NCBI GenBank assembly: GCA_038131935.1
Contig: JAYPQH010000007.1
Coordinates: 1-20,509 of the forward strand
Direction of reading: 5' to 3'
DNA: 20,509 nucleotides
Source: Alphaproteobacteria bacterium
Lineage (GTDB): Bacteria > Pseudomonadota > Alphaproteobacteria > UBA8317
Shown here: positions 2,346-18,824 of the stretch, in pieces
Position numbering within the stretch: the first letter of the stretch is position 1
Layout of the letters: the number at the start of each line of letters is the position of its first letter
Notes under the pieces: generated by a model
Told to the model about the DNA's origin: nothing
The model's database searches: none
The model's input: the letters and a program-made list of their open reading frames with translations, nothing else
Made by a program: the position numbers and the translations under genes

Positions 2346-2415
2346 GGGGCATTGCGCTTCACGTGGGTGTGACTATATCTGAATGTTACTGGTCCGTTTG
2401 AGAGGTTGAAGTATC

Positions 2416-4218
2416 ATGGAAGAAGTATCACGCGTCAGAAATTTTTCGATTGTGGCGCATATCGACCATGGCAAGTCGACCTTGGCTGACCGCCTGATCC
2501 AATTATGTGGTGGGCTGAGTGAACGAGAAATGTCAAACCAAGTTCTCGATTCTATGGATATCGAGAAGGAACGTGGGATCACCATTAAGGCCCAGACCGT
2601 TCGGTTGCGCTATGAACATGATGACGGTGAGGTTTATTACCTAAATCTCATTGACACCCCGGGGCATGTTGATTTTGCCTATGAGGTCTCCCGTTCGCTC
2701 AAAGCTTGTGAGGGGTCCTTACTCGTGGTGGATGCGTCTCAAGGCGTGGAAGCTCAAACCCTTGCCAATGTCTATCAAGCGCTTGATCACAATCATGAAA
2801 TTGTTCCAGTCCTCAATAAAGTTGATCTACCCGCAGCAGAACCTGAGCGTGTTCGTGAGCAAATAGAGGATGTTATTGGCATCGATGCATCAGAGGCGGT
2901 TGAGATTTCTGCAAAAACGGGGTTGAACATCGATGCTGTGCTAAAAGCAATTGTAGAACGACTTCCAGCGCCAAAAACAGAAGGTGCAGACAAGCCTCTG
3001 AAAGCTTTGCTGGTTGATAGCTGGTATGATGAGTATTTGGGTGTTGTTGTTCTGTTCCGTATTTTTGACGGAGAACTCAAAAAAGGCGACCGAATTCGTT
3101 TTATGTCGAATAAGGTTAGCTACCCAGTTGATCGCGTTGGTGTGCTGACACCGAAAGGCTTAATGGTTGATAAATTGGGACCTGGAGATATTGGGTTTTT
3201 GACAGCCAGTATCAAGCAAGTTGCCGACACGCGCGTAGGTGATACCATTACCCTTGAGAAGCGCCCTTGCGATGCACCATTAGAGGGTTACAAGCCTGCA
3301 CAACCTGTTGTGTTCTGTGGCTTGTTTCCCGTTGATGCTTCCGATTTTGAGAGTTTGCGCGATGCTTTAGGAAAACTTCGTCTAAATGATGCAAGTTTTG
3401 AGTTTGAGATGGAAACCTCTGCAGCCCTTGGCTTTGGCTTCCGGTGTGGTTTTTTAGGACTGCTGCATTTGGAAATCATCCGTGAACGTCTTGAGCGTGA
3501 ATTCAGGCTTGATTTGATCACCACCGCGCCCTCTGTTATCTATCGCCTCACCATGACAGACGGTTCAGAGCAAGAATTGCATAATCCTGCTGATATGCCT
3601 GATGTCGTGAAAATTGATAGCATTGCCGAGCCTTGGATTACGGCAACAATTCTTGTCCCAGATGAATTCTTAGGTGCTGTATTAAAATTATGTGAAGACC
3701 GACGGGGGACCCAAACCAACCTAACATACGCGGGTAGTCGTGCCATGGTTGTCTATGACCTTCCTTTGAATGAAGTTGTGTTTGACTTTTATGACAAGCT
3801 TAAGTCAGCAACCCGTGGTTATGCGAGTTTTGATTATCAAATGAAGGGCTATGAAGTCGGGGATCTTGTTCGGATGTCTATTCTGGTAAATGCAGAGCCT
3901 GTAGATGCATTGGCCACCATCGTTCATCGTGCGCGTGCAGAAGACCGTGGTCGTGCGCTGTGTGAAAAACTTAAAGACCTAATCCCTCAGCATCTTTTCC
4001 AAATCCCTATACAAGCAGCACTTGGTGGGCGCATTATTGCGCGTGAAACCATAAGGGCGATGCGCAAAGATGTTACGGCCAAATGCTATGGCGGGGACGC
4101 ATCACGGAAACGAAAACTTCTTGATAAGCAGAAAGCAGGTAAGAAGAAAATGCGTCAGTTTGGGCGCGTGGAAATCCCACAAGAAGCGTTTATTGCGGCC
4201 TTACGCTCAGACGGCTAA
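2416..4218 (+). CDS. lepA: Elongation factor 4 (LepA GTPase)
   Basis: [63 protein letters not shown]; 600 aa. Confidence 0.99.
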
Positions 4219-4508
4219 AGCTGTCGCCTGTGCTTTTTGACGACCAGCGCCACAATTTCAACAAGCACGGCTATGATCAGGAGCAACATCCAAAAGGGCC
4301 GTTCCAACACGGGTTGAATAATGCTGCTCCACAGCCAGGGGTTTAAATGGCGTTCTATGGCTGGTTGCCAGATAGGGAAATGGTCAGGGAACAAAAAATA
4401 GAGATGGGCACCCAGTGGGGGAAGGTCTTGGATAAAAACATCAACGCCAAGAGATAGAAACCCTAAGGCGGCAATCAGCAGGGCCCCTGCGCGGACGTAG
4501 GATATCAC
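4215..4508 (-). CDS. Small hypothetical membrane protein (two predicted TM segments)
   Basis: Hydrophobic N- and C-terminal stretches flank [14 protein letters not shown]. The GTG start overlaps the msrA stop (GTGA), and the stop overlaps the lepA stop convergently. Confidence 0.7.
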
Positions 4509-5077
4509 AACTTTACCCCGGTTGGGGCGATGCCGCAGTACCCACGTGGGTTTTTTGCAAGATATTGTTGGTGGTAGGTTTCTGCCAAAATAAGAGGCCC
4601 CTCATCGAGGATGTCTGTTGTTATGGGCGGATACCCTTTTTGTTGGTACGCGTCATCGTAGGCAGCTCTTGCCTTCAAAGCTTCTTTGCGTTGCTGTTCC
4701 TGGGTGGGCATAATGGCTGATCTGTATTGGCTTCCTCTGTCGTTACCTTGTCTGTGTCCTTGGGTTGGATCATGATTTTCGAAGAAAATGCTTAGCAAAC
4801 TATCAAAAGATACAACATCTGGGTCGAAATTCACCAAGACAACCTCTGCATGCCCAGTGGTTCCTGTGCATACCAAATGATAATCTATATTTGTGGAGGT
4901 CCCGCCCGCATAGCCAACTGCTGTTGCCAATACACCTTTTGTTTGCCAAAAAATGCGTTCAGCCCCCCAAAAGCAACCCATGCCAAAAACCGCCATATCT
5001 TGATCTTCGTGCACAATCGATCCGGGTAAAATAAAATGAGGTGAGCTGGCTTTTTCCAGATGTTCAATGAGCGTCAT
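4505..5077 (-). CDS. msrA: Peptide methionine sulfoxide reductase MsrA
   Basis: GMGCFWGAE catalytic motif, GYAGG, TGHAEVV, HDPTQGHRQGNDRGSQYRSAI, AETYHQQYL, GYCG. The ATG at 5077 has GGAGA just upstream and is preferred over the ORF-track start at 5155, which lies inside the Pho box. Confidence 0.95.
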   Translation of the reverse strand: MTLIEHLEKASSPHFILPGSIVHEDQDMAVFGMGCFWGAERIFWQTKGVLATAVGYAGGTSTNIDYHLVCTGTTGHAEVVLVNFDPDVVSFDSLLSIFFENHDPTQGHRQGNDRGSQYRSAIMPTQEQQRKEALKARAAYDDAYQQKGYPPITTDILDEGPLILAETYHQQYLAKNPRGYCGIAPTGVKL

Positions 5078-5148
5078 GACGGTCTCCAAAACATGATTAC
5101 AGACCCCCCACACATAATCAGCTGTATGAGATGGAACAAGGTGCATGT

Positions 5149-5166
5149 CTGTCACAAAGTTGTCAC
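5149..5166 (+). promoter_or_regulatory. Putative Pho box (PhoB binding site)
   Basis: CTGTCAC-AAAG-TTGTCAC: two 7-mers with 11-bp periodicity matching the CTGTCAT-N4-CTGTCAY consensus, about 45 bp upstream of the sulfatase-family start. Confidence 0.7.
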
Positions 5167-5209
5167 AGCATCATGACAAAACATGAGTTTCTAAGATGGG
5201 GGAGCTTGG

Positions 5210-6751
5210 ATGCGGGTATTATTTTTGTCGGTTGACCAATGGCGTGGAGACTATTTTGGATTTATGGGACACCCTGTTATTCAAACGCCTAATATTGACG
5301 CCTTGGCGGAAGACAGCGCGCAGTTCCGTCGTCATTATGCCGTGGCAGCGCCTTGTGGCCCCTCTCGAACATCCATGCTAACAGGGCTGTACCCACAAGT
5401 GCATCGCTCTGTCTACAATGGGGCGCCGCTCGAGCAACGCTTTGAAAACATTGCGTCTTTGGTCCGGGACCATGGTGGTCATCCACAACTGATTGGCTAC
5501 ACCGATACATCTATTGATCCTGCAACAGTGGCAAAAGGAGATAAGAGATTACGCAGCTATGAAGGGGTGATGACAGGGTTTCATCAGTTGTATGATCATT
5601 CCGAAATGATGTTAGGGCTTTGGCGTCATCATTTGTCACAAGCCTCTGTTGAGGTGGGAGAGGGGTCTTTTCGTGACTTATATGCCCATCAGGAATATTC
5701 AGCGTCTGCTTTTCCCGATAGTCCTGCCAAATATGAAGCAGCCTACTCAGACACAGCATTTATCGCAGATCGGCTCATGGAGCATATAGATGTATTTGGT
5801 CAGGATGAACATATGTTTGTCCATGGGGTGTTTTTACGGCCACATCCACCCTTGGTGGCGCCTGAACCTTTTCATAGTATGTATGAAAACTTCGATATAA
5901 CACCAGCTCTTCCTCATCAAAACGATACAGATGAATTCGTTGCGGCATGGCTGAAATTTCAAACAACATCCCCTGAATATTATGATGCTGACATAGATAT
6001 GTCATCACTAACGGAAAAAGATGTCTGCGCAATGCGCCGTGTGTATTTGGGATTGGCGACAGAGGTTGACCATCATATTGGAAGGCTAATCAATCATCTC
6101 AAACAAAAAGGCCTTTATGATGAAACCTTGATTATCTTTACATCTGATCATGGTGAAATGTTGGGTGATTATGGGCTTTGGGGCAAAATGGGCTTTTTTG
6201 ATCCAGCTTTCCATATTCCCTTATTGGTCAAGCCACCTAAGAGCTTTCCTTGCATCCCTGGGCCACGCCATGGGTTCACGGAGAATGTTGATGTCATGGC
6301 GACGATAGCCGATTATCTTCAATTGCCTACATCTCCTGATGTGGCTGGTATCAGTTTGCGTCAGAATATTCATGACCCAGGGCAGCCGCTTCGTGATTAT
6401 GCAAGTTGGGCGTTCGATTATCGTTGCCAGGATGATCTCTTTTTTGAAAACGAACTCGGCCAGCCTTCTGAGGCTTGTTTGATGCATGTGTTCAAAACCG
6501 ACGCAGAAAAAGTAGTCATAAGGCCTGGTAAACCTCCTCTCTATCTCTCAGCAAATCCAGATGGATCAGAGTCTTATTGTGTACCATCTCAAGGTCATGA
6601 ACGACTGTTTCACACAAGCATCTCCCATCTATTGGTAAATTTTGAGAGGAAATATGCGAACATGAGGTTAAGTGCCGACGGCCCAGTGTCATTTTATACA
6701 AAGCGCGAGGCTTTGGTTGAGTTTTTAGGCCGTAACGTGAGAAATAGGTAG
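5210..6751 (+). CDS. Alkaline-phosphatase/sulfatase superfamily hydrolase, phosphonate monoester hydrolase (PMH/PehA)-like
   Basis: N-terminal VDQWRGD, formylglycine motif PCGPSRTSMLTG, LIGYTDT, LRPHPPLVAPEP, TSDHGEMLGD and WGK, all resembling rhizobial/Burkholderia PMH. Confidence 0.8.
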   Translation: MRVLFLSVDQWRGDYFGFMGHPVIQTPNIDALAEDSAQFRRHYAVAAPCGPSRTSMLTGLYPQVHRSVYNGAPLEQRFENIASLVRDHGGHPQLIGYTDTSIDPATVAKGDKRLRSYEGVMTGFHQLYDHSEMMLGLWRHHLSQASVEVGEGSFRDLYAHQEYSASAFPDSPAKYEAAYSDTAFIADRLMEHIDVFGQDEHMFVHGVFLRPHPPLVAPEPFHSMYENFDITPALPHQNDTDEFVAAWLKFQTTSPEYYDADIDMSSLTEKDVCAMRRVYLGLATEVDHHIGRLINHLKQKGLYDETLIIFTSDHGEMLGDYGLWGKMGFFDPAFHIPLLVKPPKSFPCIPGPRHGFTENVDVMATIADYLQLPTSPDVAGISLRQNIHDPGQPLRDYASWAFDYRCQDDLFFENELGQPSEACLMHVFKTDAEKVVIRPGKPPLYLSANPDGSESYCVPSQGHERLFHTSISHLLVNFERKYANMRLSADGPVSFYTKREALVEFLGRNVRNR

Positions 6752-6862
6752 GATTTGACAAAATTTCAAAAAATGTTTGGCGGTATGGGTGTGAAATCAT
6801 ACAAGATTTAGCGTTAGTTAACAAAAAATTTTGGCTTACGAAAAGCTGTTAAGGAGTTTGAA

Positions 6863-7696
6863 ATGGGTTGCATCCTTCAAATATCAGATTTGCATGTCCG
6901 TCCTAAAGATGTTCTTTGTTACGGAAAAGTGAACAGCAATAATATGTTGGAAAAGGCCATCTCATTTATCAATAAAATTCATATTCCTATTGATGCGATT
7001 GTGATCACTGGTGACGTAACTGATTGCGGTTTGGTGGAAGAATACCAAATGTTATCCAATCTTCTGATGAACCTCACCAAAGCACCTTATTTTCTATTGC
7101 CGGGAAATCATGATCGTCGAGAAAATTTGCGTGCCCAGTTTCCTCATCAACCATTCGCACAAGATATTGCGCCGTTTTTGCAATTTGACCAAACAGTTGC
7201 GGGTATCAGACTTATCGGTCTTGATAGTGTTGTTCCTGGTCACGAATATGGTGCGTTTGATGATGTGCGGTTGGCCTGGTTGCAAAAACGACTCGATGCA
7301 AATTCAGAAATTCCTACGATGATTTTTATGCATCATCCACCCTTTGATGGTGCTCAGAGGGCTGGAAAAAATCGGTTGAATTTATCGAGTGAGGCCTTGG
7401 AAAACTTATTACTTGGTTATCCAAATGTTGTTAGGGTATGCGCAGGACATTGGCATCGTAATGTTCAAACAAAATTTGCGCACGGCTTGGGCGTTGTTTG
7501 TCCATCAACCTGTCATCAGGTTGCATTCGATGTAGAACGTAGCTTGGGTGAGTTGATGTTTACGATGGAACCACCAGGTTTGTTGTTGCACATGATGGAT
7601 GAGGAAAAAGTGATATATACACATCAGTTGCCCATAGGTAATTTTGATGGTCCTCACCCCTATCCAGATGAACCCAATTACCCCGGTTCGGCATAA
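6863..7696 (+). CDS. Calcineurin-like metallophosphoesterase, GpdQ/CpdA family phosphodiesterase
   Basis: SDLH, TGDVTD, PGNHD, MHHPP, AGHWH and PSTCHQV motifs; SD AGGAG upstream. Confidence 0.9.
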   Translation: MGCILQISDLHVRPKDVLCYGKVNSNNMLEKAISFINKIHIPIDAIVITGDVTDCGLVEEYQMLSNLLMNLTKAPYFLLPGNHDRRENLRAQFPHQPFAQDIAPFLQFDQTVAGIRLIGLDSVVPGHEYGAFDDVRLAWLQKRLDANSEIPTMIFMHHPPFDGAQRAGKNRLNLSSEALENLLLGYPNVVRVCAGHWHRNVQTKFAHGLGVVCPSTCHQVAFDVERSLGELMFTMEPPGLLLHMMDEEKVIYTHQLPIGNFDGPHPYPDEPNYPGSA

Positions 7697-7751
7697 CCAA
7701 AAGTTGAGGGTTGGCAAAAAGATACAAAAGCCTTACATCCTCAAGTTTCGT

Positions 7752-7841
7752 GGACAGGTGGCCGAGTGGTCGAAGGCGCACGCCTGAAAGTGTGTATACG
7801 GTGATCCCGTATCGAGGGTTCGAATCCCTCCCTGTCCGCCA
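7752..7841 (+). tRNA. tRNA-Ser, GGA-type body, with one base missing in the anticodon loop as written
   Basis: Acceptor stem GGACAGG/CCTGTCC, D-arm TGGCCGAGTGGTCGAAGGCG, anticodon stem CACGC/GTGTG around CTGAAA (6 nt), long variable arm, T-arm GAGGGTTCGAATCCCTC, discriminator G plus encoded CCA. Confidence 0.92.
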
Positions 7842-7893
7842 TAAATTATGAATAAATCATTTTAAACCAATATAGTAAAAATATTGTATCTGT

Positions 7894-7919
7894 TTAACCC
7901 CTACATTAACCCCTACATT
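7894..7919 (+). repeat. Perfect 12-bp tandem repeat, putative tyrosine-integrase arm-type sites
   Basis: TTAACCCCTACA occurs twice (7894-7905, 7906-7917) plus TT, about 50 bp past the tRNA 3' end after an AT-rich spacer. Confidence 0.65.
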
Positions 7920-8041
7920 TGAGCGGCTAACCCTTTTAAAATTTTAAGGTTGCTTGCTTTTACTCAGTTTACATCTCTCTCAATCTTGAGCACATTTTTC
8001 AGTTAGAGGATCGTTGGGCTCAAATTTGTGCGAGGTTCATA

Positions 8042-8476
8042 ATGATTGATGATCTCATTGATGAAAAAGTGGTTAATGAATTTGATCGAGAACAGTTGGA
8101 AGATTTGAAAAGCCATATCGAAGGCCTTCTCGAGACTTATGGGTTTGGAGATGTTACGGGACTTACAAATCTAATCAGGGTTAGTCATCTACTACACCGA
8201 GATTTTAGAGATTTTCTAGCAGATGAAATAGATAAAATCCTTAAGGGTGAATTCAAGCCAGGTGAATCCAAGCCTCTTACAAAAGAACAATTACGAAAAC
8301 GCTATAGAAACCTAATGATTCATCATTACTATGAGTCGGAGCGAGGACATTTTTTTCCCGGTACAGGTAGTGGCCCCAAAGGGCGGCCAAGAGATGAAAT
8401 CATTCACGAGCTGATGGAAAAACATTCACTGGCCTACGAAACGATATATGATATTTTGAAGAAAAAAGAGGGGTAA
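8042..8476 (+). CDS. Hypothetical protein with a possible C-terminal HTH
   Basis: 144 aa with SD GAGG. The C-terminal RDEIIHELMEKHSLAYETIYDILKK has a helix-turn-helix-like pattern. It lies directly upstream of alpA. Confidence 0.6.
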   Translation: MIDDLIDEKVVNEFDREQLEDLKSHIEGLLETYGFGDVTGLTNLIRVSHLLHRDFRDFLADEIDKILKGEFKPGESKPLTKEQLRKRYRNLMIHHYYESERGHFFPGTGSGPKGRPRDEIIHELMEKHSLAYETIYDILKKKEG

Positions 8477-8556
8477 ATTTTATTTTTTTACCCATGAAGC
8501 GCATAATCTGAATCCTTAAATTCTTCCTAGATCCAACCAAAGACTAGGAGATATCA

Positions 8557-8754
8557 ATGGAAAACCCCATACGATTATTAAGACGTAATGAAGTTGAACA
8601 GATCACAGGGTTAGCTCGTAGTACCATCTATGCGTACATGCGGTCTGGCGACTTTCCACACCCTATTAGAATAGGCATTCGTGCCGTCGCATGGAAAAGT
8701 TGTGATGTTGAGGAATGGATAAACCATCGCGCTATCGCAGGTGAACAACCATGA
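8557..8754 (+). CDS. alpA: AlpA-family phage regulator / excisionase
   Basis: RLLRRNEVEQITGLARSTIYAYMRSGDFPHPIRIGIRAVAWKSCDVEEWI is a typical AlpA sequence; SD AGGAG. Confidence 0.95.
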   Translation: MENPIRLLRRNEVEQITGLARSTIYAYMRSGDFPHPIRIGIRAVAWKSCDVEEWINHRAIAGEQP

Positions 8755-9716
8755 CCAGCACAATCATCACAGAAGCTTTACGGAACAAGGCAAAAACTAA
8801 TGCAAAGGCGATCTGCCTAGATGTGCTAGGCAAGCCAAGTAGTGTAACTACTCATGAGCTCCGTTATGGCAATCGGGGATCGCTCTGTATCTGTGTTGCT
8901 GGGCCCAAGGCTGGCACCTACCACAACTTTGAGACAGGCAAAGGCGGTGATATGATTAGCCTGTTGTCAGACAAACTGGGCGGCATAGGCCAGGTTGTGA
9001 GATACCTAAGCGAAGATCACGGTGACACAGTTTCAACTTCTGCAACTGTGCATACAATACCCATGCCTAATCAACCAAAGGCTAAGCGTTGGTCCCATTA
9101 TGCACAACAGATCTTTGACGCATCAGTTCCGCTACAGAGAACGGCTGGTGAACATTATTTGGCACAGCGTGGTTTAGTGGATATTCCAGTAAGTGAAGAC
9201 ATTCGCTTTTTGGAAAGAAGCCCCTACCAAGCCTGCCCAGCTATTGTCTCACGGATTACTGATGCAAAAGTGCATAACGATTACATGAGCCTACATTTTA
9301 TATTCATGAAGGCCGATGGTTCAAAAGCGTTTCCCTTGCACAGAGGTAATAATAAACATCTGTTAGGTAATCATCAGACTCAAGGCGGTGTTATCAGAAC
9401 AACAGATGATACAGAGGTAGAATTAGGCCTGGGTGTGGCAGAAGGGCTGGAAGATGCGCTCTCAGCCATGATGATCTTTAAAACGCCTGTGTGGGCGGCT
9501 ATCAGCGCAGGAAACATCGCCAATCATCTACCAGCTATAAGTGGGATAGATACCTTATGTTTATTTGGTGATAATGACGATGCAGGCCATAAAGCGGTGC
9601 GTGCAGCCATAAAGAGACTAAGCAAAGATGGGTTAACTGTTAAACCTGCATTCCCACCCAAGTGCTACAAAGACTGGAATGATTATCTTATGGGGGATCA
9701 TCATGAACAGTCCTGA
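8751..9716 (+). CDS. Toprim-domain DNA primase (phage/plasmid type)
   Basis: N-terminal RYGNRGSL...G.YHNFETGKGGDMISL, YLAQRGL, Toprim VAEGLEDALS, GDNDDAG and KDWNDYL. ATGA overlap with alpA. Confidence 0.88.
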   Translation: MTSTIITEALRNKAKTNAKAICLDVLGKPSSVTTHELRYGNRGSLCICVAGPKAGTYHNFETGKGGDMISLLSDKLGGIGQVVRYLSEDHGDTVSTSATVHTIPMPNQPKAKRWSHYAQQIFDASVPLQRTAGEHYLAQRGLVDIPVSEDIRFLERSPYQACPAIVSRITDAKVHNDYMSLHFIFMKADGSKAFPLHRGNNKHLLGNHQTQGGVIRTTDDTEVELGLGVAEGLEDALSAMMIFKTPVWAAISAGNIANHLPAISGIDTLCLFGDNDDAGHKAVRAAIKRLSKDGLTVKPAFPPKCYKDWNDYLMGDHHEQS

Positions 9717-10864
9717 TTTGAATCAAGTCATTCAGACGTCTGAAGCAGACTTAAACGGAATTCCAGTGGATGAACACGGTAATATAGACCTCAAGCAGAT
9801 GAATGTCCTTAATGCGCGGGATTTACCGCCACGGATAGAGCCTGTGCCTTACATTGTGAAAGGAGTGCTTAACCAAAAAAGTATGGCGTATGTATATGCG
9901 CAGCCATCCACTGGCAAAACCTTCTTTACATTGGATTTGGCGTATCATGCTGCTGCAGGGCGTGTTTGGATGGGTAAGCGTGTAAATAGGACGAATGTAC
10001 TTTACTGCATTCAAGAGGGTGTGACGGGCTTTAAGAACAGAATGAAAGCCATCCAGGCGGAAAAGAACTTTGCTGATACAGATTTTTACTATCGGACAGA
10101 GCGTATCAATCTTATGAAGGATGCTGATACAAATGATATCATCAGGCAAGCCAGAGCTGTGCGAAACGGACGCCCTGTGCTGGTCATCATTGATACCCTG
10201 AGTCAGGCCCTTGCAGGCGAAGACGAGAACAGCAGTAAGCCTATGAGCAAGGTTGTTGGTGAATGTCAGCGTATCCAGCGTGAGGCAGAAGCAGCTGTGC
10301 TCCTTGTCCACCATACAGGCAAAGCTAAGGATAATAAGACAGTCAGAGGGCATTCAGCATTACGCGGGGGTACTGACACAGAGATCTTGTTGGAGCGCAC
10401 GAGTGAAAGCGAAGAAAATCTCATCGTTAAGGCGACAACAAAAAAAAGCAGCGTGATGGGCAAGAGGGGCGCTTTGTACATTCCAACTTGAGAAAGTGTA
10501 TATGGGGAATGATGCAGAGGGTGATCAAATTACGTCACGGATCATCAGGCAGGTAGAAGATACTTTTGACGGTGCGGGGTTTGCTGAAGTAGGCAAGGAT
10601 GAAGGGCCAGATTTTAAAAGTGATCATAAAAGAGCAATCTTCGAGTGCTTTCAGTTGCTCAGAAAGGAACTGGGTAAGAATGAGGTTCCTATTGAGCTGC
10701 TAAAGGAAGCGTATATCATTAAAAAGAAACCAACGAATGGCCGTCAGTTGTGGGCGCAAAATTTTAGAGAAATGCAAAATTCTCATTACCTTGCAGTTGT
10801 TGGAGCTAAGGACGTGAAAGAAGGAGATTGGCGTAAGTTTGCAAGCTTACGCTTAAGGGGCTGA
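9703..10864 (+). CDS. AAA_25 / RepA-like replicative helicase (one gene split by two frameshifts)
   Basis: Walker A AQPSTGKT, Walker B VIIDT, VHHTGK and RGHSAL. A shift in the A8 run at 10440-10447 restores KQRDG, and a second shift near 10494 joins ORF 10496..10864 (GNDAEGDQITS). The likely start is ATG 9703 with SD GGGGGA. Confidence 0.85.
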
Positions 10865-10893
10865 CACAGGAAAAAAACCAAGTCTATACAATG

Positions 10894-10946
10894 GTGTAAG
10901 TATGTAAGCGTAAGTACCCCCTTCTTTAGAAGGGGTACTACTTACA
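10894..10946. other. Putative replication origin: GTAAG iterons flanking a palindrome
   Basis: GTAAG occurs three times (gtGTAAG tatGTAAG cGTAAG), followed by TACCCCCTTCT-TT-AGAAGGGGTA and then inverted CTTAC, immediately after the helicase. Confidence 0.55.
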
Positions 10947-10999
10947 ACATGTTAGATGGCGCTTATTTATGCTTTGTGATGGCTATATAAAAGAGATAT

Positions 11000-11056
11000 G
11001 GGTCCTTCCACCATGTTCAACCGCGAGGTATTCGCAAGCGCGGCTTTCTCCTAGCG
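11000..11056 (+). other. Lambda-like cos-like packaging motif (cosQ/cosN-like)
   Basis: GGGTCCT (the lambda cosQ heptamer) at 11000-11006, then the dyad CCGCG-N13-CGCGG (11021-11043) followed by CTTTCTCCTAG, resembling lambda's CGCGGGTTTTCGCTA. Confidence 0.5.
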
Positions 11057-11070
11057 GTAGGATTACCTAT

Positions 11071-11210
11071 GAGTGGTCTGTTGGCTGGCAAAATACTGAA
11101 CTTGGTAAGCTCGTGAAAATAGGGTTCGTAGAAAGCTTCCATGGGTAAACACTTAGACGAATGCCTAGACAAAGCCCTTTTTTATATCACTCAGGCATGT
11201 CCTGTATAAA
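11071..11210 (+). pseudogene. Decayed IS3-family transposase C-terminal (integrase core) fragment
   Basis: Translates as VGWQNTELGKLVKIGFVESFHG/KHLDECLDKALF, resembling the IS3 consensus WHYIxPGKPxQNGFVESFNGRLRDECLNxxLF. Confidence 0.65.
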
Positions 11211-11323
11211 GGCTTGCCATTCAACAATCAGGCTTCTTCCAAACGAAGGCCTTTATGTTTGAGTGAGGGATGTTTGCTCTCTGGTCAGAGCTATTAGGTT
11301 TAATACAAAAAATTAAGTGCAGA

Positions 11324-11806
11324 TCAATCGATATCTATCGTCACAATTTCACCATTATCAAATACTACCTCGTCACAATTCTTACCATTCCCACCCCGAT
11401 CAATGATAACAAATTGTTGAGGCTTTATGACCAATAATGGGTGGTGCCAGACATTGCTGTGATAATTTACACCCTGTTTGCCGGTCGCCCAGAATGTACA
11501 CAGACTGATTCTGGTTTGGGCTCATTTCAATAACCACAAGCCAACGCATATTATCGATTGGATAAAAAGCTTGGTTACCTAAAGGATGCTTTCGAGCATC
11601 CCAATTTGAGCGGACGAGGCCTGCTTAGGAAAATGCTAAATTGCGCTTTTAGCATTTTCGCCACCTAGTTGGATATCAATGAGATTATGAACTCGGGTTG
11701 TGTATCCTGAATTAATCTCAAACTGCTCTGCCCCCTCGACTTGAATCACGTCCCCGAAAGGTGCAAACGCTTTTCTTGTTAACGCTTCAGGCTTAATTAT
11801 GCGCAT
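11324..11806 (-). CDS. allA: Ureidoglycolate lyase (frameshifted as written; absent from the ORF track)
   Basis: Manual translation gives MRIIKPEALTRKAFAPFGDVI...INSGYTTRVH, HPLGNQAFYP, QGVNYHSNVWHHPLL, FVIIDRGGNGKNCDE. The ATG overlaps the allantoicase stop (TGATG), the stop is at 11324-11326, and there are several indels between about 11500 and 11650. Confidence 0.88.
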
Positions 11807-12792
11807 CAGATCGACGTCCCAAAAATGCGAAGGCGTGAGATTCCACCATCTGGATAGGCGTTTAGTTTCACATGTGTCACCGGATCCTGAGAGGACACTT
11901 TGTAGGTATGTACGGAGTCGGCAGTCAGCGCTCGGTATGTCAACACCTCATCCCAAAACATCGCTTGGGTGACAATTGCATCCTTTCCTAGATTTGGCAT
12001 TTGAGCAGCCTGCAGAGAGCAGCCCTCCGGAAAATTACCCTTGAAGTGCGCAGTGTCGATTTCTATGCGTTCTATTATTCCAGGAATCCCCAGTTTCACA
12101 ATAATCCACTCGTTGCCTGGAACACGGCGACGGGCGGTTTCCCAACCATCGCCCATATTCAAACCACGACCTGGAGTCAGAATAACTTCTGGATTTCCAT
12201 AGTGCGCATCCGAGTAGGCGACGACTTTTCCACCAAGCTTGAGAGCAGATAACTCAAGTTGAGCTCCCTGCATAACCTCGTCAGCAACTGGCTGCCCATA
12301 TACTTTGAGCCTTGCAACCCCACCATCAGGATAAATGTTTAAACGAATCCAGCGAATTGGTTGATCGTGAGATTTTGCATTAAAAAAATAATGAGAATTC
12401 CCCTGAAGACTGACTTCATCTAACAAGTCAATCCAATGTTCGTCAGATGGTCGACCGACACTCGATGATCCTTGAATCGATGCACCTGGCGGATAGTTAC
12501 CTGTGAAATGTGCCGTATTGATATCAAAACCAGCGATCATTCCAGGGACTGCCAATTGAATCAGACACCAATCAAATCCCCCACTCCGGCGACGACGGGA
12601 TTCCCAACCATCCATGTATTGACCATTGGCATCAAAACGACCTTTATGGAACTCAGGCTCTGAATCAGAGAGCAACCTCTGTTTATCAGCAAAGAAATCA
12701 TCGCTGCAATCGACGGCAATTGCACCAAGCTTCGCGCTCGCGAGATTCACAGCGCTCAACGCGAACCTCGGTAGATTTGATTCAACACTCAT
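11806..12792 (-). CDS. alc: Allantoicase
   Basis: Two-fold internal repeat: SDDFFA...DGWESRRRR...TAHFTGNYP...NIYPDGGVARL and SDAHYG...GDGWETARRR...DTAHFKGNFP...YPDGGISRLR. Confidence 0.96.
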   Translation of the reverse strand: MSVESNLPRFALSAVNLASAKLGAIAVDCSDDFFADKQRLLSDSEPEFHKGRFDANGQYMDGWESRRRRSGGFDWCLIQLAVPGMIAGFDINTAHFTGNYPPGASIQGSSSVGRPSDEHWIDLLDEVSLQGNSHYFFNAKSHDQPIRWIRLNIYPDGGVARLKVYGQPVADEVMQGAQLELSALKLGGKVVAYSDAHYGNPEVILTPGRGLNMGDGWETARRRVPGNEWIIVKLGIPGIIERIEIDTAHFKGNFPEGCSLQAAQMPNLGKDAIVTQAMFWDEVLTYRALTADSVHTYKVSSQDPVTHVKLNAYPDGGISRLRIFGTSI

Positions 12793-13326
12793 CTGCTTTT
12801 CTCTCTAAACGTAATCGAGTGATCCGATGGACCTCTTCAAATGCTGTTTTAAATCTTTCCTCGCAAGAAGTATTCACTCTGAGACGAAATATTTCCAAAT
12901 ATCAGATCGGTGATAATCTTTCACCACAGATATAAATGGAAACCTAACATCAAAAATTAATTCTTAAAAATTCCGTAGCTCTTTAAGCGCAGCCGGTCAA
13001 GCCCGCGTTCGTCTGCTCTGAGTGGACGACTCGATAAGTTCAGCGAAACGCAGCTAGTCAGATAGAGCCGAGTTAAAAATAAAAAAGGATTGCATTAAAC
13101 TTATAGGGTGCCTGTGTAAACAATAGAGCTCATCTGTTTCGCGATCAAAAGCGGTTCATTATAAGATTTCAACGATTGATAAAGCGCCTCAGCAGCACAT
13201 GAATTGTGCTAATGGGGGTACAATGCAACGTTCCAACCTACTGGCCAAACGGCACTGTATTGGTGAACCGAATTTAGCTGTCTGGATTTCGGAGATATAG
13301 TAATCCCTATCATGACAGGTGAGCAG

Positions 13327-13446
13327 ATGAAGAAAAAGTCTCAACAAAAATATAGCCCCGAGTTCAGACTCGAGGTGGTAGCTCTAAATGTCGATCATTG
13401 CTTGAAAATCAGAGACATTAATAATGCAAGGTTTTATCGAGTTTGA
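13327..13446 (+). pseudogene. IS3-family transposase orfA N-terminal remnant
   Basis: MKKKSQQKYSPEFRLEVVALNVDH... matches the start of the HTH_Tnp_1 domain (KYSPEFRLE) and stops after 39 aa. Confidence 0.6.
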
Positions 13447-13536
13447 AAAGACCTACTGAATTTGTGGGATAGGTGAGAGCTAAAAAATATAAGCCCCTAA
13501 TGATAAAACATTAAATTTAATCCCTGTCGCTAAGAA

Positions 13537-14385
13537 TTACTCTAACTCGCCCAGCAGTTCGTGCTGGCGTTCGACCCGCTCCATATGCGCTCGCCCTGGT
13601 TTTCCAGAGTATAGAAAAGCTGTCACCGCAATAAGGCGTAGTAAACTGAGGCTTGCAGTTGCTGTATCAAAGACCAGAGGGCTGCGCGTTTCAACTTTAA
13701 AACACCAGTGGGCCAGAGCAGGTATACGCCGAGCTGTATTATCAGTAATTAGAAGCCTTTTGGTTTGGCAGGTTTTTGCTTGCTCCATAATCTGAGTTAG
13801 CTGCCTGAGTCGACGGCGCAATCCTATGCCGATAACCAGATCAGATTTGGTAAAGTCGGCGGTATATTCGCCGACTGTCTCGCCTGCTGCAGGAAGGGTG
13901 TAAACATCTCCTCGAAATTGGACAATCTGCCAGCGCAAATAAGCTGCTAGGAAATGACTATTTCTGAATCCCGCTATCCAAATACGCTTCGCAGCTATTA
14001 TGGCTAGCGCGGCATCATGAAGCTCAGTATAATTCAACTGTCCAAGACTATGTTTGAGTAGCTCAACCTCTTCTGATATATATTCTTTCAGCTCGACATG
14101 GTGCGACGAAGACTTGTTTTCAAGATAAAGTGGTGAGCCCCAGTTTTGACGATCACGCGACTGTTTGCGCGCCTCCTCATAAGATGAGTAACCTAGCTTC
14201 TGAAAGAAACGCGTACCTGAGGCTTTTGAAACTCCGGCAAGTATCGCCAACTCCGTAACGCTTCTTGAGCCAAGATCACCAGGTAGGCGCAGCACAGTTT
14301 CTGCAAGCTTCCTTTCAGAGTCAGACAAGTCCTCATAGTGCTCATGGATCCTTAATTCCACTGACTTCGGCCGGTGTGGTGCCAT
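13537..14385 (-). CDS. MurR/RpiR-family transcriptional regulator (HTH + SIS)
   Basis: LSDSERKLAE, ELAILAGVSKASGTRFFQKLGYSSY HTH and a SIS domain (RIWIAGFRNS, LLITD). It is divergent from the TRAP operon. Confidence 0.92.
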   Translation of the reverse strand: MAPHRPKSVELRIHEHYEDLSDSERKLAETVLRLPGDLGSRSVTELAILAGVSKASGTRFFQKLGYSSYEEARKQSRDRQNWGSPLYLENKSSSHHVELKEYISEEVELLKHSLGQLNYTELHDAALAIIAAKRIWIAGFRNSHFLAAYLRWQIVQFRGDVYTLPAAGETVGEYTADFTKSDLVIGIGLRRRLRQLTQIMEQAKTCQTKRLLITDNTARRIPALAHWCFKVETRSPLVFDTATASLSLLRLIAVTAFLYSGKPGRAHMERVERQHELLGELE

Positions 14386-14567: not shown

Positions 14568-14600
14568 TGAAACATAGGCCAATGTACATAGGTGTAACGA

Positions 14601-15147
14601 ATGCCCAGTACTACCCATCATGAAAACGCGCCAATTGCGCTAACTGCAATAAGGCTTAGCCGCGGACTTAATTGGTTTGTTGAGCGTCTCTGTGTTGCGC
14701 TACTGGTTATCCTTGTTTTGGATGTTTGGCTGGGTATCATGGCGCGCTACATTCTTCCTTGGCAGTTAACGTTCACAGAAGAACTGGCTCGTTATCTAAT
14801 GATCTGGGTGGCGCTGATTGCTGTTTCCTCCCGGAATCGCACACCGTGAGCATGTTGGCGTACTCATCATCTTCGAGCGCTTTCCTACCCTGACGCGGAA
14901 AATGGCTTACGCAGTCTTGTTTGATCTAATCGCATTAGTCTTCTTTGGAGTCATTTTGATCTATGGTATCGGAATGGTTGAGCGAGGCTTTAGTCGCTAC
15001 ACCATGATCAATGAGATCCCAAAAGCTTGGCCTTTTATGGGCGTTCCGATTGCAGCAGGTCTCGCTTGCATACAACTGATAATGGTAAGCGTCCATGACT
15101 TATTTGCCACGGACGTTTACGTTGCTAACTCGCAGATGGGGAGCTGA
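14601..15147 (+). CDS. dctQ: TRAP transporter small permease DctQ (one frameshift near 14830)
   Basis: IMARYIL...FTEELARYLMIW, followed in another frame by GIAHREHVGV and further TM helices. Confidence 0.88.
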
Positions 15148-15150
15148 AAT

Positions 15151-16429
15151 ATGTTTCTCGTTGCAATTACTTTCTTTGGTTTAATGGCGATTGGCATGCC
15201 AGTAGGTATTGTTATGGGTGTTGCGGGTATGGTGGGTATCTGGGACATGGGACCTAATTTTTGAAGATGGTCCCAGACCGTTTATTTGCTGGACTTGACC
15301 TCTTTCCCTTCTTTATGATGCCCTTCTTTATCCTTGCGGGTGAGGTAATGAATAAGTCTGGCATTACCGCAAATCTGGTAAGGTTCGCTGATGCGCTGGT
15401 CGGCTGGTTGCGTGGTGGGATGGCATGATTCCAACATGTTGGCATCTGTCATGTTTGCTGGAATCACAGGCGCAGCGACGGCGGATGCCGCGGCTTTCGG
15501 GAACACGCTTGTCCCGGCGATGGTGAAAAAGGGTACTCGCGCCCCTTCTGCCTGCGCGGTTACAGCAGCAGGCTCGATTATTAACCCACCATCCCACCCT
15601 CGACACTCGCTGTGATCTACGGATCGATTATGGGCGTCTCGATTGCTGGACTGTTTGCTGCGGGTATTCTGCCTGGGTTGCTGATATGTATCGTTTGTAT
15701 GGCGCTTATCGCCATCTTCGGCAAGCGCTGGAATCTGCCTAAAGGCGACACGCGTCCGAGCCTGATGGGTATCATTGCTGCGTTTCGTATGAGTATTCCT
15801 CGCTTTGATACTTCCAGTGTTTATTCCTCGGGTCAATACTCGGTGGCTTTGGTAACTCCAACGGAAGCAGCTTCCGTTGCGCTGGCGTACTCGCTGTTTA
15901 TCGCTGTGGTTGTTTATCGGTCAATTACCTGGAGTGACCTGTTTCATATGATGGTGCGCACTGCTCGCATCACTGGAGTAATCTTTTTGATTATCGCATC
16001 TGCTTCGATACTTGGCTGGTGGGATGACGTTTAATCAAACCTACAAGCAATTGCTGGCGATTTCTCTCGATCTCATCAAATCCTCAAGTGATCATTGGTC
16101 TAATCCTGATCTTACTGCTGTTCATCGGCTTGTTCATGGATATCAATGCCACCCTGATCATCCTTGCACCGGTACTGGCACCATTGACACTCAAGATTGG
16201 AATGGACCCGGTACATGCTGGAATCATGATCATTCTGGCACTTAATATCTCGTTAATGACGCCGCCTGTTGGCGCCTGCCTATTTGTTCTCGCCTCAGTA
16301 ACCCAAGAAAAAGTAGAGAACATTACGAAGAGTCTTTGGCCATTCCTGTTAGCAGAGCTTCTTGTACTAATTCTGATCGCATTCTGGCCAGACTTAACAC
16401 TCGCTATTCCGCGAATGTTTGGCATGTAA
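15151..16429 (+). CDS. dctM: TRAP transporter large permease DctM (multiple frameshifts)
   Basis: MPFFILAGEVMN, FAGITGAATADAAA, SIAGLFAAGILPGLL, TPTEAASV, GMDPVHAG and TPPVG are distributed across frames. Confidence 0.9.
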
Positions 16430-16473
16430 ACCTTAAACCCGCAAACCCCCCAAATACGATAGGAGATTCCCAA

Positions 16474-17508
16474 ATGACTATTTTCCATTCGATCAAAACT
16501 TTCGCCATCAGCGGTGTTGCAGCAGCAGCAATCTCGTTCCCAACAATGGCAGCTGATGTGACCATGCGATTGGCTCACCTGAATCCAGCTGACCCGTTTG
16601 TAAGTCACTCTGGAGCTATGACTGCCGTTTTCAAATCATTGGTTGAAACTGCCAGTGGCGGCTCCATCGAAGTTAAGCTTTTCCCGGACGGTCAGTTGGG
16701 AAAGGACAACGAGGTAATTCAGCAAGTTCGCGATGGACTCGTGCAATCAACAATTTCTTCCGCGGGGGTATTGCACAGCACTATCCTCTTGTAGGCGTAT
16801 TTGATATTCCTTTCGCTTTTCCCAACATAGCGGTATCCAATCGTGTGATAGATCTTCACAGTGACTTCGGTAAGAAGTTTGCTAGCGGTCTTGAGTCAGA
16901 AACTGGTCTGAAGGTTATGGGCCTATTGGATAGCGGTGGTTTCTTTGCGTTTACCAACTCAAAAAAGCCGATCACCAGCGTAGCGGATATGGACGGCCTT
17001 CGTATTCGTACAATGACGCTCCCTACCCACCAAGCGATGGTCAACTCACTGGGTGGTCAAGCTACTCCACTGCCTTGGCAGAGGTTTATACTGCACTTCA
17101 GACAGGTGTAGCAGATGGACAGATGAACCCTATTCCAATCATCGCTTTCGCAAAATTTGATGAGGTTCAGAAATACCTTCAATTACCAACCATGTGATAA
17201 CGCCTTACGTCTGACAATGAACAAAGAATTCTATGACAGCCTGACCCCAGAACAGCAGTATATTGTTGATTGGGCTGCTGAGGTTGCAGTTGAAACAGGT
17301 CGGGTATGTCTCGCGTAATCGAAGCTTCAGAGAACGGTTTACCAAAGCTCGCTGAAAAGATGGAAGTAAATGCATCCCCTGCAGAATTAGCTAAGTTTTT
17401 GCTGAAGTCGCACAGCCTGCTGTGTGTGCTCTAATTGAAGAGAAGTACGGTGAGGCGGGTATCGATATGCTCAATTCTATGCTGGCTGAAATAAAGAAAG
17501 CGATGTAA
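16474..17508 (+). CDS. dctP: TRAP substrate-binding protein DctP (multiple frameshifts)
   Basis: SD AGGAG, signal peptide MTIFHSIKTFAISGVAAAAISFPTMAA, LFPDGQLG, FDIPFAF, DMDGLRIRTM, GVADGQMNP, FDEVQKY. Confidence 0.9.
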
Positions 17509-17525
17509 TTTAGTGAAGAACTGCG

Positions 17526-17547
17526 GCGGGAGATGCCTTTCTCCCGC
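17526..17547 (+). other. Intercistronic hairpin after dctP
   Basis: 8-bp stem GCGGGAGA-tgcctt-TCTCCCGC with no U-tract; more likely an mRNA-stabilising or attenuating hairpin than a full terminator. Confidence 0.5.
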
Positions 17548-17582
17548 TCTCAAACACCCCGTTAACACCATTAGATGTTGGC

Positions 17583-18824
17583 ATGAAACAACTTTACCCC
17601 TACTTCCAACTAGATATACCCGTTGATTACGCGGTAAATCCATCGGCCGCATTTGAATCAATTGGCGCTGACAATGCCTTGAGCGTTGTGTCAGACAAAG
17701 CTAGAGAGGAAGCGTTCTTAGAAATTTGCTCGTGGAAAGGCTATGAGCCCACACCATTAAGGAGCCTTGGTGGACTAGCAGCTGCCTTAGACGTAACAAG
17801 CGTTGCCTATAAAGACGAGGCCTCACGGTTCGGATTAGGAAGCTTTAAAGCACTCGGTGGTGCCTATGCCGTTATGCAAGTTCTTAAAGAGCAGATCGCC
17901 AATCATTTTCCTGATATGAACATCAGTTTGTCAGATATACGAAATCATAAATTTGCAGAGCAGGTCGCAAAAGAGACAGTATGCTCTGCAACAGATGGCA
18001 ATCATGGACGTGCAGTCGCTTGGGGTGCGCAGCGTTTTGGCTGTCGTTGCGTAATATATGTGCACGAACGCGTTAGCCAAGGTCGTATTGATGCGATAGC
18101 TGCTTATGGCGCTGAGGTTCGTGTTGTAAAAGGCAACTACGACGATGCAGTTCGTGAAGCAGCCCGAGTTTCAGAAGCCGAGGGCTGGATAGTCGTTTCA
18201 GACACCTCCTACGAAGGTTGTGTAACCATTCCCCGCAATGTGCTAACTGATACACTGTGATGGTGACCGAGGCAATTAGTCAACATGAAGCTTTCTATGG
18301 CCGCCCTCCTACCCATGTCTTCGTGCAAGGAGGAGTAGGTGCATTAGCGGGTGCAGTGGCATCCACACTCTGGGATTACTACGGTGTTCAGCGGCCGATT
18401 TGTTGTGTTGTGGAACCCGACAAAGCAGCCTGTATGATGAAAACTGTTCGCCAAGGCAGTCCCGCCGTTGTAACTGGTGATCTGGATACCCTAATGGCTG
18501 GACTGGCTTTAGGTGAAGTCTCTCTAATCGCCTGGGACATACTGGAAAAGGCAGCAGACCACTTTATGGCAATTACGGATCAGTCTGCCGTTGAATGCAT
18601 GCGCTTATCTAGCTAATTCCCCGGTAATCCACCAATTGTGGGAGGTGAGTGCCGTCGCTGGTTTGGCTGATGTATACTCGCTTGTGCTGATGAAAATCTT
18701 GTAAAAGTACTGAAACTAACGTCCTGTAGCCGTATTCTTGTTTTTGGCACTGAGGGTGCAACTGATCCAGAGCTATACGCCGAACTCGTAGGTCGCCCTG
18801 CTTCTTGAGGTTTGTCCTGAATGA
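17583..18824 (+). CDS. dpaL: Diaminopropionate ammonia-lyase (PLP, fold type II; frameshifted, end approximate)
   Basis: YEPTPL, YKDEASRFGLGSFKALGGAYAV (PLP lysine), ATDGNHGRAVAWGA, VSDTSYEG, PTHVFVQGGVGALAG, MAGL and C-terminal VFGTEGATDPELY. Confidence 0.92.

Follow-up and report, generated by a model that had tools for sequence, protein, structure and literature searches.

The stretch of DNA analysed here, hereafter the window, comprises the entire contig C7 (20509 bp) of an alphaproteobacterial genome assembly of 2.48 Mb in 67 contigs that is 90% complete, and the locus of interest consists of a tRNA-Ser(GGA) gene and the 3.2 kb that follow it. In order, and all on the forward strand, this segment encodes an orphan protein (orf144), an AlpA-type regulator, a DNA primase and a RepA-family replicative helicase, which together would represent the regulation and replication core of an integrative element that targets tRNA genes. 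An initial annotation had described the segment as a minimal phage-satellite backbone that replicates itself, is packaged with the terminase and capsid of a helper phage, and may carry at least 9 kb of nitrogen-scavenging cargo. The data presented here point to a different, more modest object, probably a non-autonomous and mosaic remnant of a tRNA-targeting int-alpA-primase-helicase element, located at the edge of a strain-variable region.

The first gene of the segment, orf144 (8042..8476, + strand), has no match in Pfam, PHROG or NCBIfam, and a search of 1.84 billion representatives returned two matches for its product, one of which is the protein itself. The predicted structure is all-helical (predicted local distance difference test score of 70.6) and shows a sub-threshold likeness to Mu Mor in Atlas and Foldseek (template modelling score 0.44; E-values of 1.7-2.9), a weak lead according to which the product is possibly a small DNA-binding regulator. 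The alpA gene (8557..8754, + strand) encodes a helix-turn-helix (HTH) regulator of the AlpA/excisionase type (PF05930, E-value 2e-21; phrog_2790, 9.7e-14), which also matches PF12728 (1.5e-6) and is the sole AlpA match in the genome. The primase gene (8751..9716, + strand) is intact, with a DUF7146 plus Toprim_3 architecture at full length (PF13362, 1.2e-17; PF23639, which is DUF7146, 1.1e-11; phrog_510, 2.4e-30) and PF13155 as its only other Pfam match, and its product aligns over the full length with the 321-aa protein P0124 at 96% identity and 100% coverage. The orphan reading frame, alpA and primase named by the initial annotation are therefore real. At their stop and start, alpA and the primase gene share 4 nt, and the primase gene likewise ends inside the helicase gene, whose true start is at 9703, so that AlpA, primase and helicase are encoded in one tightly coupled operon. 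Judging from the protein families involved, AlpA would turn this operon on, and the element would be copied by primase and helicase, starting at an origin close by.

The helicase gene (9703..10864, + strand) carries an AAA_25 match of the RepA family and contains a net +1 frameshift. Its closest database protein, P0001, is an uninterrupted 386-aa polypeptide with 95% identity, which the window matches in two frames (9703-10503 and 10436-10861). Consequently, the helicase is present as had been proposed, whereas the 122-aa open reading frame (ORF) that follows it at 10496-10864 is the helicase C-terminus, split off by the frameshift, and not a separate gene. The lesion lies near 10440-10468, where the window has A8 for A6 and G4 for G5; in 4/4 metagenome runs, all contigs over the site lack two bases at 10440 and have one more at 10465 or 10468, which gives the in-frame form. 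In frame, the A8 run (10436-10470) presents an A-AAA-AAA slippery heptamer, where slippage by -1 would bring back the long protein, and because the gene is in frame in 4/4 other populations, mutation or error is a simpler explanation of the lesion than slippage.

The tRNA gene at the left border (7752..7841, + strand) was reported by ARAGORN with the anticodon '(ga)' and is the sole credible Rfam match at E-values up to 1 (tRNA, 50.1 bits), with one loop position missing in the Infernal alignment. The anticodon is GGA in 5/5 aligned relatives and the window is one G short, which identifies the gene as tRNA-Ser(GGA) with a 6-nt anticodon loop (7784-7790) in this assembly. Contigs from other metagenomes have the extra G behind 7785, and no further tRNA-Ser(GGA) occurs among the 36 tRNAs of the assembly; the missing base is either a consensus error or the mark of a disabled tRNA. 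Within the 200-bp spacer between the tRNA gene and orf144, the arm-like repeats that had been proposed come down to a perfect 12-nt tandem duplication of 2.2 copies (7894..7919; Tandem Repeats Finder score 52). This duplication stands, but the unit has only two copies in the element, and its near matches elsewhere (3, vs 1.39 expected) are at chance level, since 20/100 shuffles reach the same number. Promoter-like sites are likewise at chance level (9 found vs 6.8 expected).

At the right border, nested palindromes and a hairpin are found at and after the helicase stop (10831..10950; inverted repeats I1-I3; fold z-score of -2.1 over 226 nt). The palindromic zone that had been likened to an origin is thus present, but no iteron array lies near it; it received no intrinsic-terminator score, and by its sequence it could be either a terminator or an origin. 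The supposed cos-like motif fared worse, as it falls in a 52-nt dispersed repeat (11031..11082) with 90% identity to an intergenic stretch of contig C37 (29766-29817) and in the 3'-end relic of an insertion sequence (IS) transposase (11065..11242, + strand; 71% identity over 182 nt, E-value 4e-17, to C5:91642-91818). The matched part of contig C5 encodes rve/rve_3 and lies after an ORF with HTH_Tnp_1, a content that assigns the transposase to the IS3 family. With a dispersed repeat and an IS relic at this place, the stretch is not a packaging signal; the IS3 relic would instead mark the right edge of the cassette.

The relatives of this core appear to be prophages and small integrase-bearing islands. 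Helicase relatives (E-value up to 1e-15) were detected in 13/400 sampled genomes of the same class, and an integrase accompanied them in 5/6 loci examined; these six loci differ in content, with a capsid gene or terminase genes at one extreme and restriction systems and a MobA relaxase at the other. The helicase family is mainly phage-borne (1351 phage vs 25 plasmid records), with the best matches in Roseobacter and Caulobacter phages at 33% identity. For the primase, a scan with a 16-sequence alignment yielded 80 loci, in 53 of which a primase ORF could be called, and 11 of these 53 contain the pair of DUF7146/Toprim primase and AAA_25 helicase (5 checked against Pfam and 2 more checked). Ten adjacent-pair loci for which 2.2 kb or more of sequence was available upstream form the basis of the integrase count: a tyrosine integrase lies upstream and on the same strand in eight, confirmed by Pfam in five (L036, L051, L060, L062 and L064), and the two loci without integrase are a conjugative context and a prophage with a tape-measure gene. 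For example, L062 (Mesorhizobium sp. SCN 65-20) is a full prophage with int, HTH, primase, helicase, portal, protease, capsid, TerS and TerL genes. L060 (5444-12800), from a Pseudomonadota metagenome-assembled genome, is a roughly 7-kb island that contains only int, genes for an HTH protein, a primase and a RepA helicase, and two small ORFs; it is followed by a core SurA-like gene and tRNA-His/Val and may represent a minimal integrative replicon belonging to this family. In L072, the order tRNA-Ser(GGA), int, a 191-aa ORF, AlpA, winged HTH and primase reproduces that of the window, with an integrase in the slot that holds only 200 bp in the window. These relatives are distant (26-45% identity), and they therefore show the usual architecture of the family and not the history of the window copy. 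The description of the cassette as a tRNA-adjacent module with which a mobile element regulates and replicates itself is supported. Of the two features that define the int-alpA-primase-RepA family in these relatives, the window has the primase directly before the AAA_25 helicase and lacks the upstream tyrosine integrase.

None of the window ORFs scanned matches the tyrosine or serine recombinase families PF00589, PF00239 and PF07508. A profile of 39 integrase sequences (5 Pfam-verified seeds and 34 matches) likewise failed to reveal an integrase relic in the six frames of the contig (best E-value 1.3), and the same profile scored a split integrase on contig C30 at 3e-58 as a positive control. 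Outside the other tRNA-Ser genes, the 2.48-Mb assembly contains no copy of at least 16 nt of the tRNA 3' end (last 16-45 nt, one mismatch allowed), and no direct repeat of this end is present inside the window, so that neither the tyrosine integrase nor the repeat that had been named as a check on the satellite proposal was found. Similarly, no pac or cos site, no terS and no capsid gene were found at the window and no packaging signal could be defined; the 90%-complete genome has no HK97 capsid or TerL_ATPase family match, which does not exclude a lytic helper phage. Close relatives were not found in genome contigs (searched with the primase alone), in metagenome contigs of the Joint Genome Institute (helicase) or in IMG/VR viral contigs (either protein). 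In the absence of an integrase, a second attachment site, and packaging or capsid genes, the core is unable to excise or integrate alone, and neither self-sufficiency nor packaging with a helper's proteins, as initially annotated, finds support here.

The distribution of the locus in other populations was derived from contigs of four marine metagenome runs in four studies (X1, X2, X4 and X5), compared with the window at 85% likeness or more; only metagenome contigs were used, in which rare forms are invisible, with a listing that covered their longest pieces and 15 of the 30 joints. Parts of the stretch occur in runs from marine, estuary, lagoon and biofilm metagenomes, and two RNA runs contained 0.07 of the sampled words. 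In X1, X2, X4 and X5, respectively, the left flank (513-7779) was covered at depths of 171, 70, 50 and 29, with about 99% identity and 1 gap in 7268 nt, and the primase-helicase segment (8925-10844) at 146, 60, 57-72 and 26, with 97% identity, X5 being represented by a helicase piece only and leaving the primase uncovered. The orf144-alpA segment (7832-8861) was covered at 13, 10, 4 and 5 and was near-identical to the window (3 other letters in 1032 nt), and the metabolic genes beyond 13.2 kb had depths of at most 4.6, 11.6, 0.8 and 2.1, mostly below one tenth of those of the flank and the primase-helicase segment. The bin 10515-11181 reached 2.5, 2.4, 2.4 and 1.85 times the flank depth and hence behaves as a repeat. 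The primase-helicase core is common to the dominant strains, the modules on either side of it are not, and rarest of all are the metabolic genes. In two metagenomes, independent contigs (7832-8861 and 7836-8954) include the final 6-10 nt of the tRNA gene and continue through orf144 and alpA into the primase, which establishes that the junction without an integrase is real to at least the tRNA 3' end. Among the contigs listed for the four runs none bridges 10844 to 11900, and C7 is consequently the sole source for cassette and metabolic genes being neighbours. The 15 joints listed include none that indicates excision or a circle, an observation that is not evidence against excision; the same caution extends to parts without coverage and to the missing bridge.

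Taken together, the gene content and order, the usual presence of an integrase in the relatives, the lack of a recombinase and of an attR copy, the IS3 relic, the junction recovered in other metagenomes, and the uneven depths on either side of the core underlie our preference for a stranded, mosaic remnant. Several observations weigh against it. Two separate losses are needed, one of the tRNA-side integrase and one of the distal end, and the contig stops at 20509, so that a distal integrase or attR may lie beyond. Furthermore, the core is 97% identical, in frame and at chromosome-like depth in the dominant strains of other samples, a conservation that suits a live, exchanging family of elements better than an old relic, and these dominant strains could hold an integrase between tRNA and primase. 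The helicase frameshift and the tRNA deletion, finally, may be consensus errors of this assembly, in which further long ORF-poor stretches occur.

Downstream of the IS3 relic, the window contains genes for which "nitrogen-scavenging" is a fair label, most of which are untranslatable as they stand in this assembly. They comprise a ureidoglycolate lyase gene in three frames with at least 2 breaks (11327..11806, - strand; PF04115 profile pieces 1-54, 75-99 and 108-158), an intact allantoicase gene (11806..12792, - strand; TIGR02961, 2.8e-119) and an intact gene for an RpiR/MurR-family regulator (13537..14385, - strand; PF01418 and PF01380). These are followed on the + strand by the dctQ/dctM/dctP genes of a tripartite ATP-independent periplasmic (TRAP) transporter in at least 10 pieces (14598..17315; Pfam pieces in alternating frames, 2 for DctQ, 4 for DctM and 4 for DctP), a diaminopropionate ammonia-lyase-like pyridoxal phosphate enzyme in 2 pieces (17517..18613; PALP profile 4-135 and 147-255, in two frames), and an M20 peptidase fragment with a CN-hydrolase cut by the contig end (19014..20507; PF01546 and PF00795), the remainder of which is on no other contig of the assembly. 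The best named relatives of the pyridoxal phosphate enzyme are about 386 aa long with 57-63% identity, and as a near-identical intact copy was not found, this comparison does not separate a real pseudogene from an error. The roughly 745 bp between the allantoicase and RpiR genes (12793-13536) contain no long ORF and may represent another decayed gene or a regulatory region. The metabolic genes together carry at least 11 frame breaks, and a homopolymer of 5 or more is present in 3/11 break zones and absent from 8/11; a simple homopolymer-error model fits the helicase (A8) and tRNA (GG) sites and fails at these 8. In near-identical contigs of low depth, gaps account for most differences from the window (1 other letter and 8 gaps in 415 nt; 8 and 25 in 1095 nt), and the 1.8 kb of allantoicase and RpiR sequence in the same low-depth region are gap-free against other contigs. 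The indels thus reflect either real decay of flexible regions or a poor low-coverage consensus. The ureide and nitrogen genes would belong to the strain-variable stretch and are at most putative members of the element. The proposal that they form a 9-kb cargo is not supported, given the intervening IS3 relic, the broken state of the genes, and their failure to travel with the primase-helicase core in 4/4 metagenomes; what stands of it is that metabolic genes are present downstream, most of them in pieces.

Three other explanations were weighed. The idea of the initial annotation, a working satellite or hitcher without its own integrase that replicates itself and owes its excision and packaging to a helper phage or a sibling integrase acting in trans, draws on the compact, translationally coupled operon, the mostly phage-borne relatives of the helicase, and a core that elsewhere is 97% conserved, in frame and at flank-like depth, with flanking modules varying between strains as in mosaic mobile elements. 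In addition, the part of the satellite survey considered here mentions many elements with AlpA or packaging hallmarks in which core genes are missing, and allows that they may belong to undescribed satellite families (PMC10085698). We nonetheless consider this idea improbable, given that attR is nowhere in the assembly, that no packaging site, terS or capsid gene accompanies the core and the supposed cos is a repeat and an IS relic, that the helicase is broken in this assembly, that neither protein has a close relative among IMG/VR viral contigs, that the HK97 capsid and TerL_ATPase families are unmatched in the genome, and that no excision or circle joint was among the 15 of 30 joints listed, contigs missing rare forms. 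A related conception sees in AlpA, primase and helicase a live replicon without an integrase, which is maintained at tRNA-Ser throughout a poorly sampled lineage of marine alphaproteobacteria, swaps its tRNA-side regulatory module and its downstream load between strains and is moved only in trans by a sibling integrase or phage; it is doubtful to the same degree; if true, it would describe a minimal hitcher, one step below the phage-inducible chromosomal minimalist islands (PICMI) of Vibrionaceae.

Alternatively, the cassette could be the tRNA-proximal end of a larger, intact, tycheposon-like island of at least 12.7 kb, with ureide, TRAP and amidohydrolase cargo and with integrase and attR past the contig end. 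The right-hand 9.2 kb are indeed atypical in composition (96th percentile of tetranucleotide distance, vs the 10th for the left flank) and rare in populations that have the flank; the only same-genus genome, which is 84% complete, gave no allantoicase match, in a search that is unvalidated since the family matched 0/14 control genomes; and nutrient cargo beside tRNAs has been described for tycheposons, in the portion of the preprint considered (bioRxiv 10.1101/2020.12.28.424599). However, in 8/10 relatives the primase-helicase pair has its integrase upstream and not distally, the IS3 relic and the frame breaks separate and damage the supposed cargo, the orf144-alpA segment is 2-5x deeper than the metabolic genes (in X4, about 4x vs 0-0.8 beyond 13.2 kb), and the assembly lacks any continuation of the contig, which leaves such an island rather unlikely. 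The remaining possibility is that C7 represents a chimera, or a consensus of mixed strains, with the joint in the repeat and IS relic (10.9-11.3 kb), so that cassette and metabolic genes are neighbours in no cell and the indels are consensus errors. The lack of a listed contig bridging 10844 to 11900 in the four runs, the repeat-like depth of the 10515-11181 bin, the predominance of gaps in low-depth near-identical contigs (as against 1 in 7268 nt of flank), and the occurrence of several other stretches without long ORFs in the genome all agree with such a joint. It is opposed by the gap-free allantoicase and RpiR genes, by the lack of homopolymers in most break zones, and by the possibility that a bridging contig exists, as only the longest contig pieces were listed; on balance a chimera is unlikely, and a remnant at the edge of a strain-variable region remains the reading we prefer.

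Such a remnant resembles several known systems in part. Islands of the P4/CP4-57 type and Type C elements resembling phage-inducible chromosomal islands (PICI), which combine int, AlpA and a primase/replicase, share with the window the position directly at a tRNA 3' end and the succession of AlpA and replication genes on the same strand without virion genes. The window differs from them in having no integrase, no psu/delta/sid and no terS, and in pairing a DUF7146/Toprim primase with a separate RepA (AAA_25) helicase. The core components of a PICI include an integrase and packaging or hijacking genes (terS, capsid morphogenesis). Five such components are counted in the part of the source considered (PMC10085698), of which the window has AlpA and replication genes only. 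The same text places elements with int, AlpA and primase alone in a low-confidence class that may hold defective PICI or other mobile elements (PMC10085698), and compared with that class, as the SatelliteFinder description presents it, the window, lacking int, has even less. The PICMI of Vibrionaceae, as far as the consulted description goes, require int, alpA and a DUF3987/DUF5906 primase and lie next to fis between 17-bp direct repeats (PMC10803314). The window is similar to them in its marine host, very small gene set, AlpA plus primase and lack of capsid-remodelling genes (PMC10803314); it has the alpA gene (PF05930/PF12728) but no integrase, no PF13148 or PF19263 primase, no fis site and no direct repeats, and its separate RepA helicase has no counterpart in the PICMI so described.

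Tycheposons, in the part of their description considered, carry a site-specific recombinase (tyrosine, rarely serine) and are flanked by partial tRNAs, and degenerated fragments occur outside intact elements, where they are known by hallmark genes (bioRxiv 10.1101/2020.12.28.424599). On that description, and judged by the kind of gene, the window shares with them primase/helicase and excisionase-type hallmark genes and nearby nutrient-acquisition genes, as well as a tRNA gene (7752-7841) with strain-variable downstream sequence in 4/4 metagenomes. It has neither a recombinase nor a partial tRNA at the far flank, where the contig end leaves a distal copy possible, and so fits the account of degenerated fragments and not the definition of a tycheposon. 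The idea that alpA with primase and helicase would define PICI, PICMI or tycheposon-like elements is not supported, as the families named all require an integrase in the descriptions considered. Prophage early regions of the int-HTH-primase-RepA type offer the same primase-helicase pair in the same order (L062; Roseobacter phages CRP-811/821/831, whose RepA-family helicases are 33% identical to that of the window), whereas prophages of the L062 type carry integrase, portal, protease, capsid and terminase genes, none of which is present in the window.

If the preferred reading is true, the locus represents one more stranded fragment of a tRNA-targeting element and requires no new biology. It also calls for caution, because AlpA, primase and helicase beside a tRNA gene are not enough for a satellite, metabolic genes adjacent in a metagenome-assembled contig are not thereby cargo, and apparent pseudogenes and a damaged tRNA are possibly assembly artefacts. 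The element is ordinary in kind and its population-level mosaicism mildly interesting: a core in frame and at chromosome-like depth with differing flanking modules in four metagenomes would make the tRNA-Ser locus an exchange hot spot of a little-sampled lineage.

That lineage is sparsely represented, its order consisting of this genome and the same-genus genome mentioned above. An alphaproteobacterial origin would fit the permuted transfer-messenger RNA encoded in the assembly, a form associated with that class, as well as the relatives at class level and those named for the element proteins. The left flank consists of intact housekeeping genes (pheT, lepA, msrA, sulfatase and metallophosphoesterase). 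The same-genus genome has lepA-msrA-sulfatase in common and then diverges, with no tRNA at that place, and therefore provides no empty-site comparison. In 3/4 metagenomes a contig joins the lepA end (4157) straight to the start of the tRNA-Ser gene (7752), without msrA, sulfatase and phosphoesterase, and as the shorter side of this joint measures 30 nt only, it probably stems from a related organism with a shorter locus. The cassette is at the 88th percentile of tetranucleotide distance from the genome; the composition of the right-hand part would fit a flexible region and provides no tie to the cassette.

Elsewhere in the genome, long stretches with few ORFs of at least 150 aa (C5:69000-91826, C18:216000-237000, C15:1-9000 and C37:30000-39000) contrast with a median ORF coverage of 0.91, and are either decayed flexible islands or low-quality consensus; C5 terminates in a degraded IS3-family element. 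The C7 ends have no overlap of at least 15 nt with any other contig. Integrases were detected on C6 and C14, in split form on C18, and in split form at the start of C30, none with a link to the tRNA-Ser locus. The last of these (C30:440-1691; locus L027) is a P4-type tyrosine integrase in pieces of 123 and 310 aa, 440 bp from the contig start, with small ORFs and a gene for a HipA-like kinase behind it; it belongs to another degraded island, for which no link to the window was found. Finally, a tRNA-Ser(TGA) gene on C29 (111-200) lies 110 bp from the contig end with its 3' end toward the break, and may represent another tRNA-adjacent variable site at which the assembly broke.

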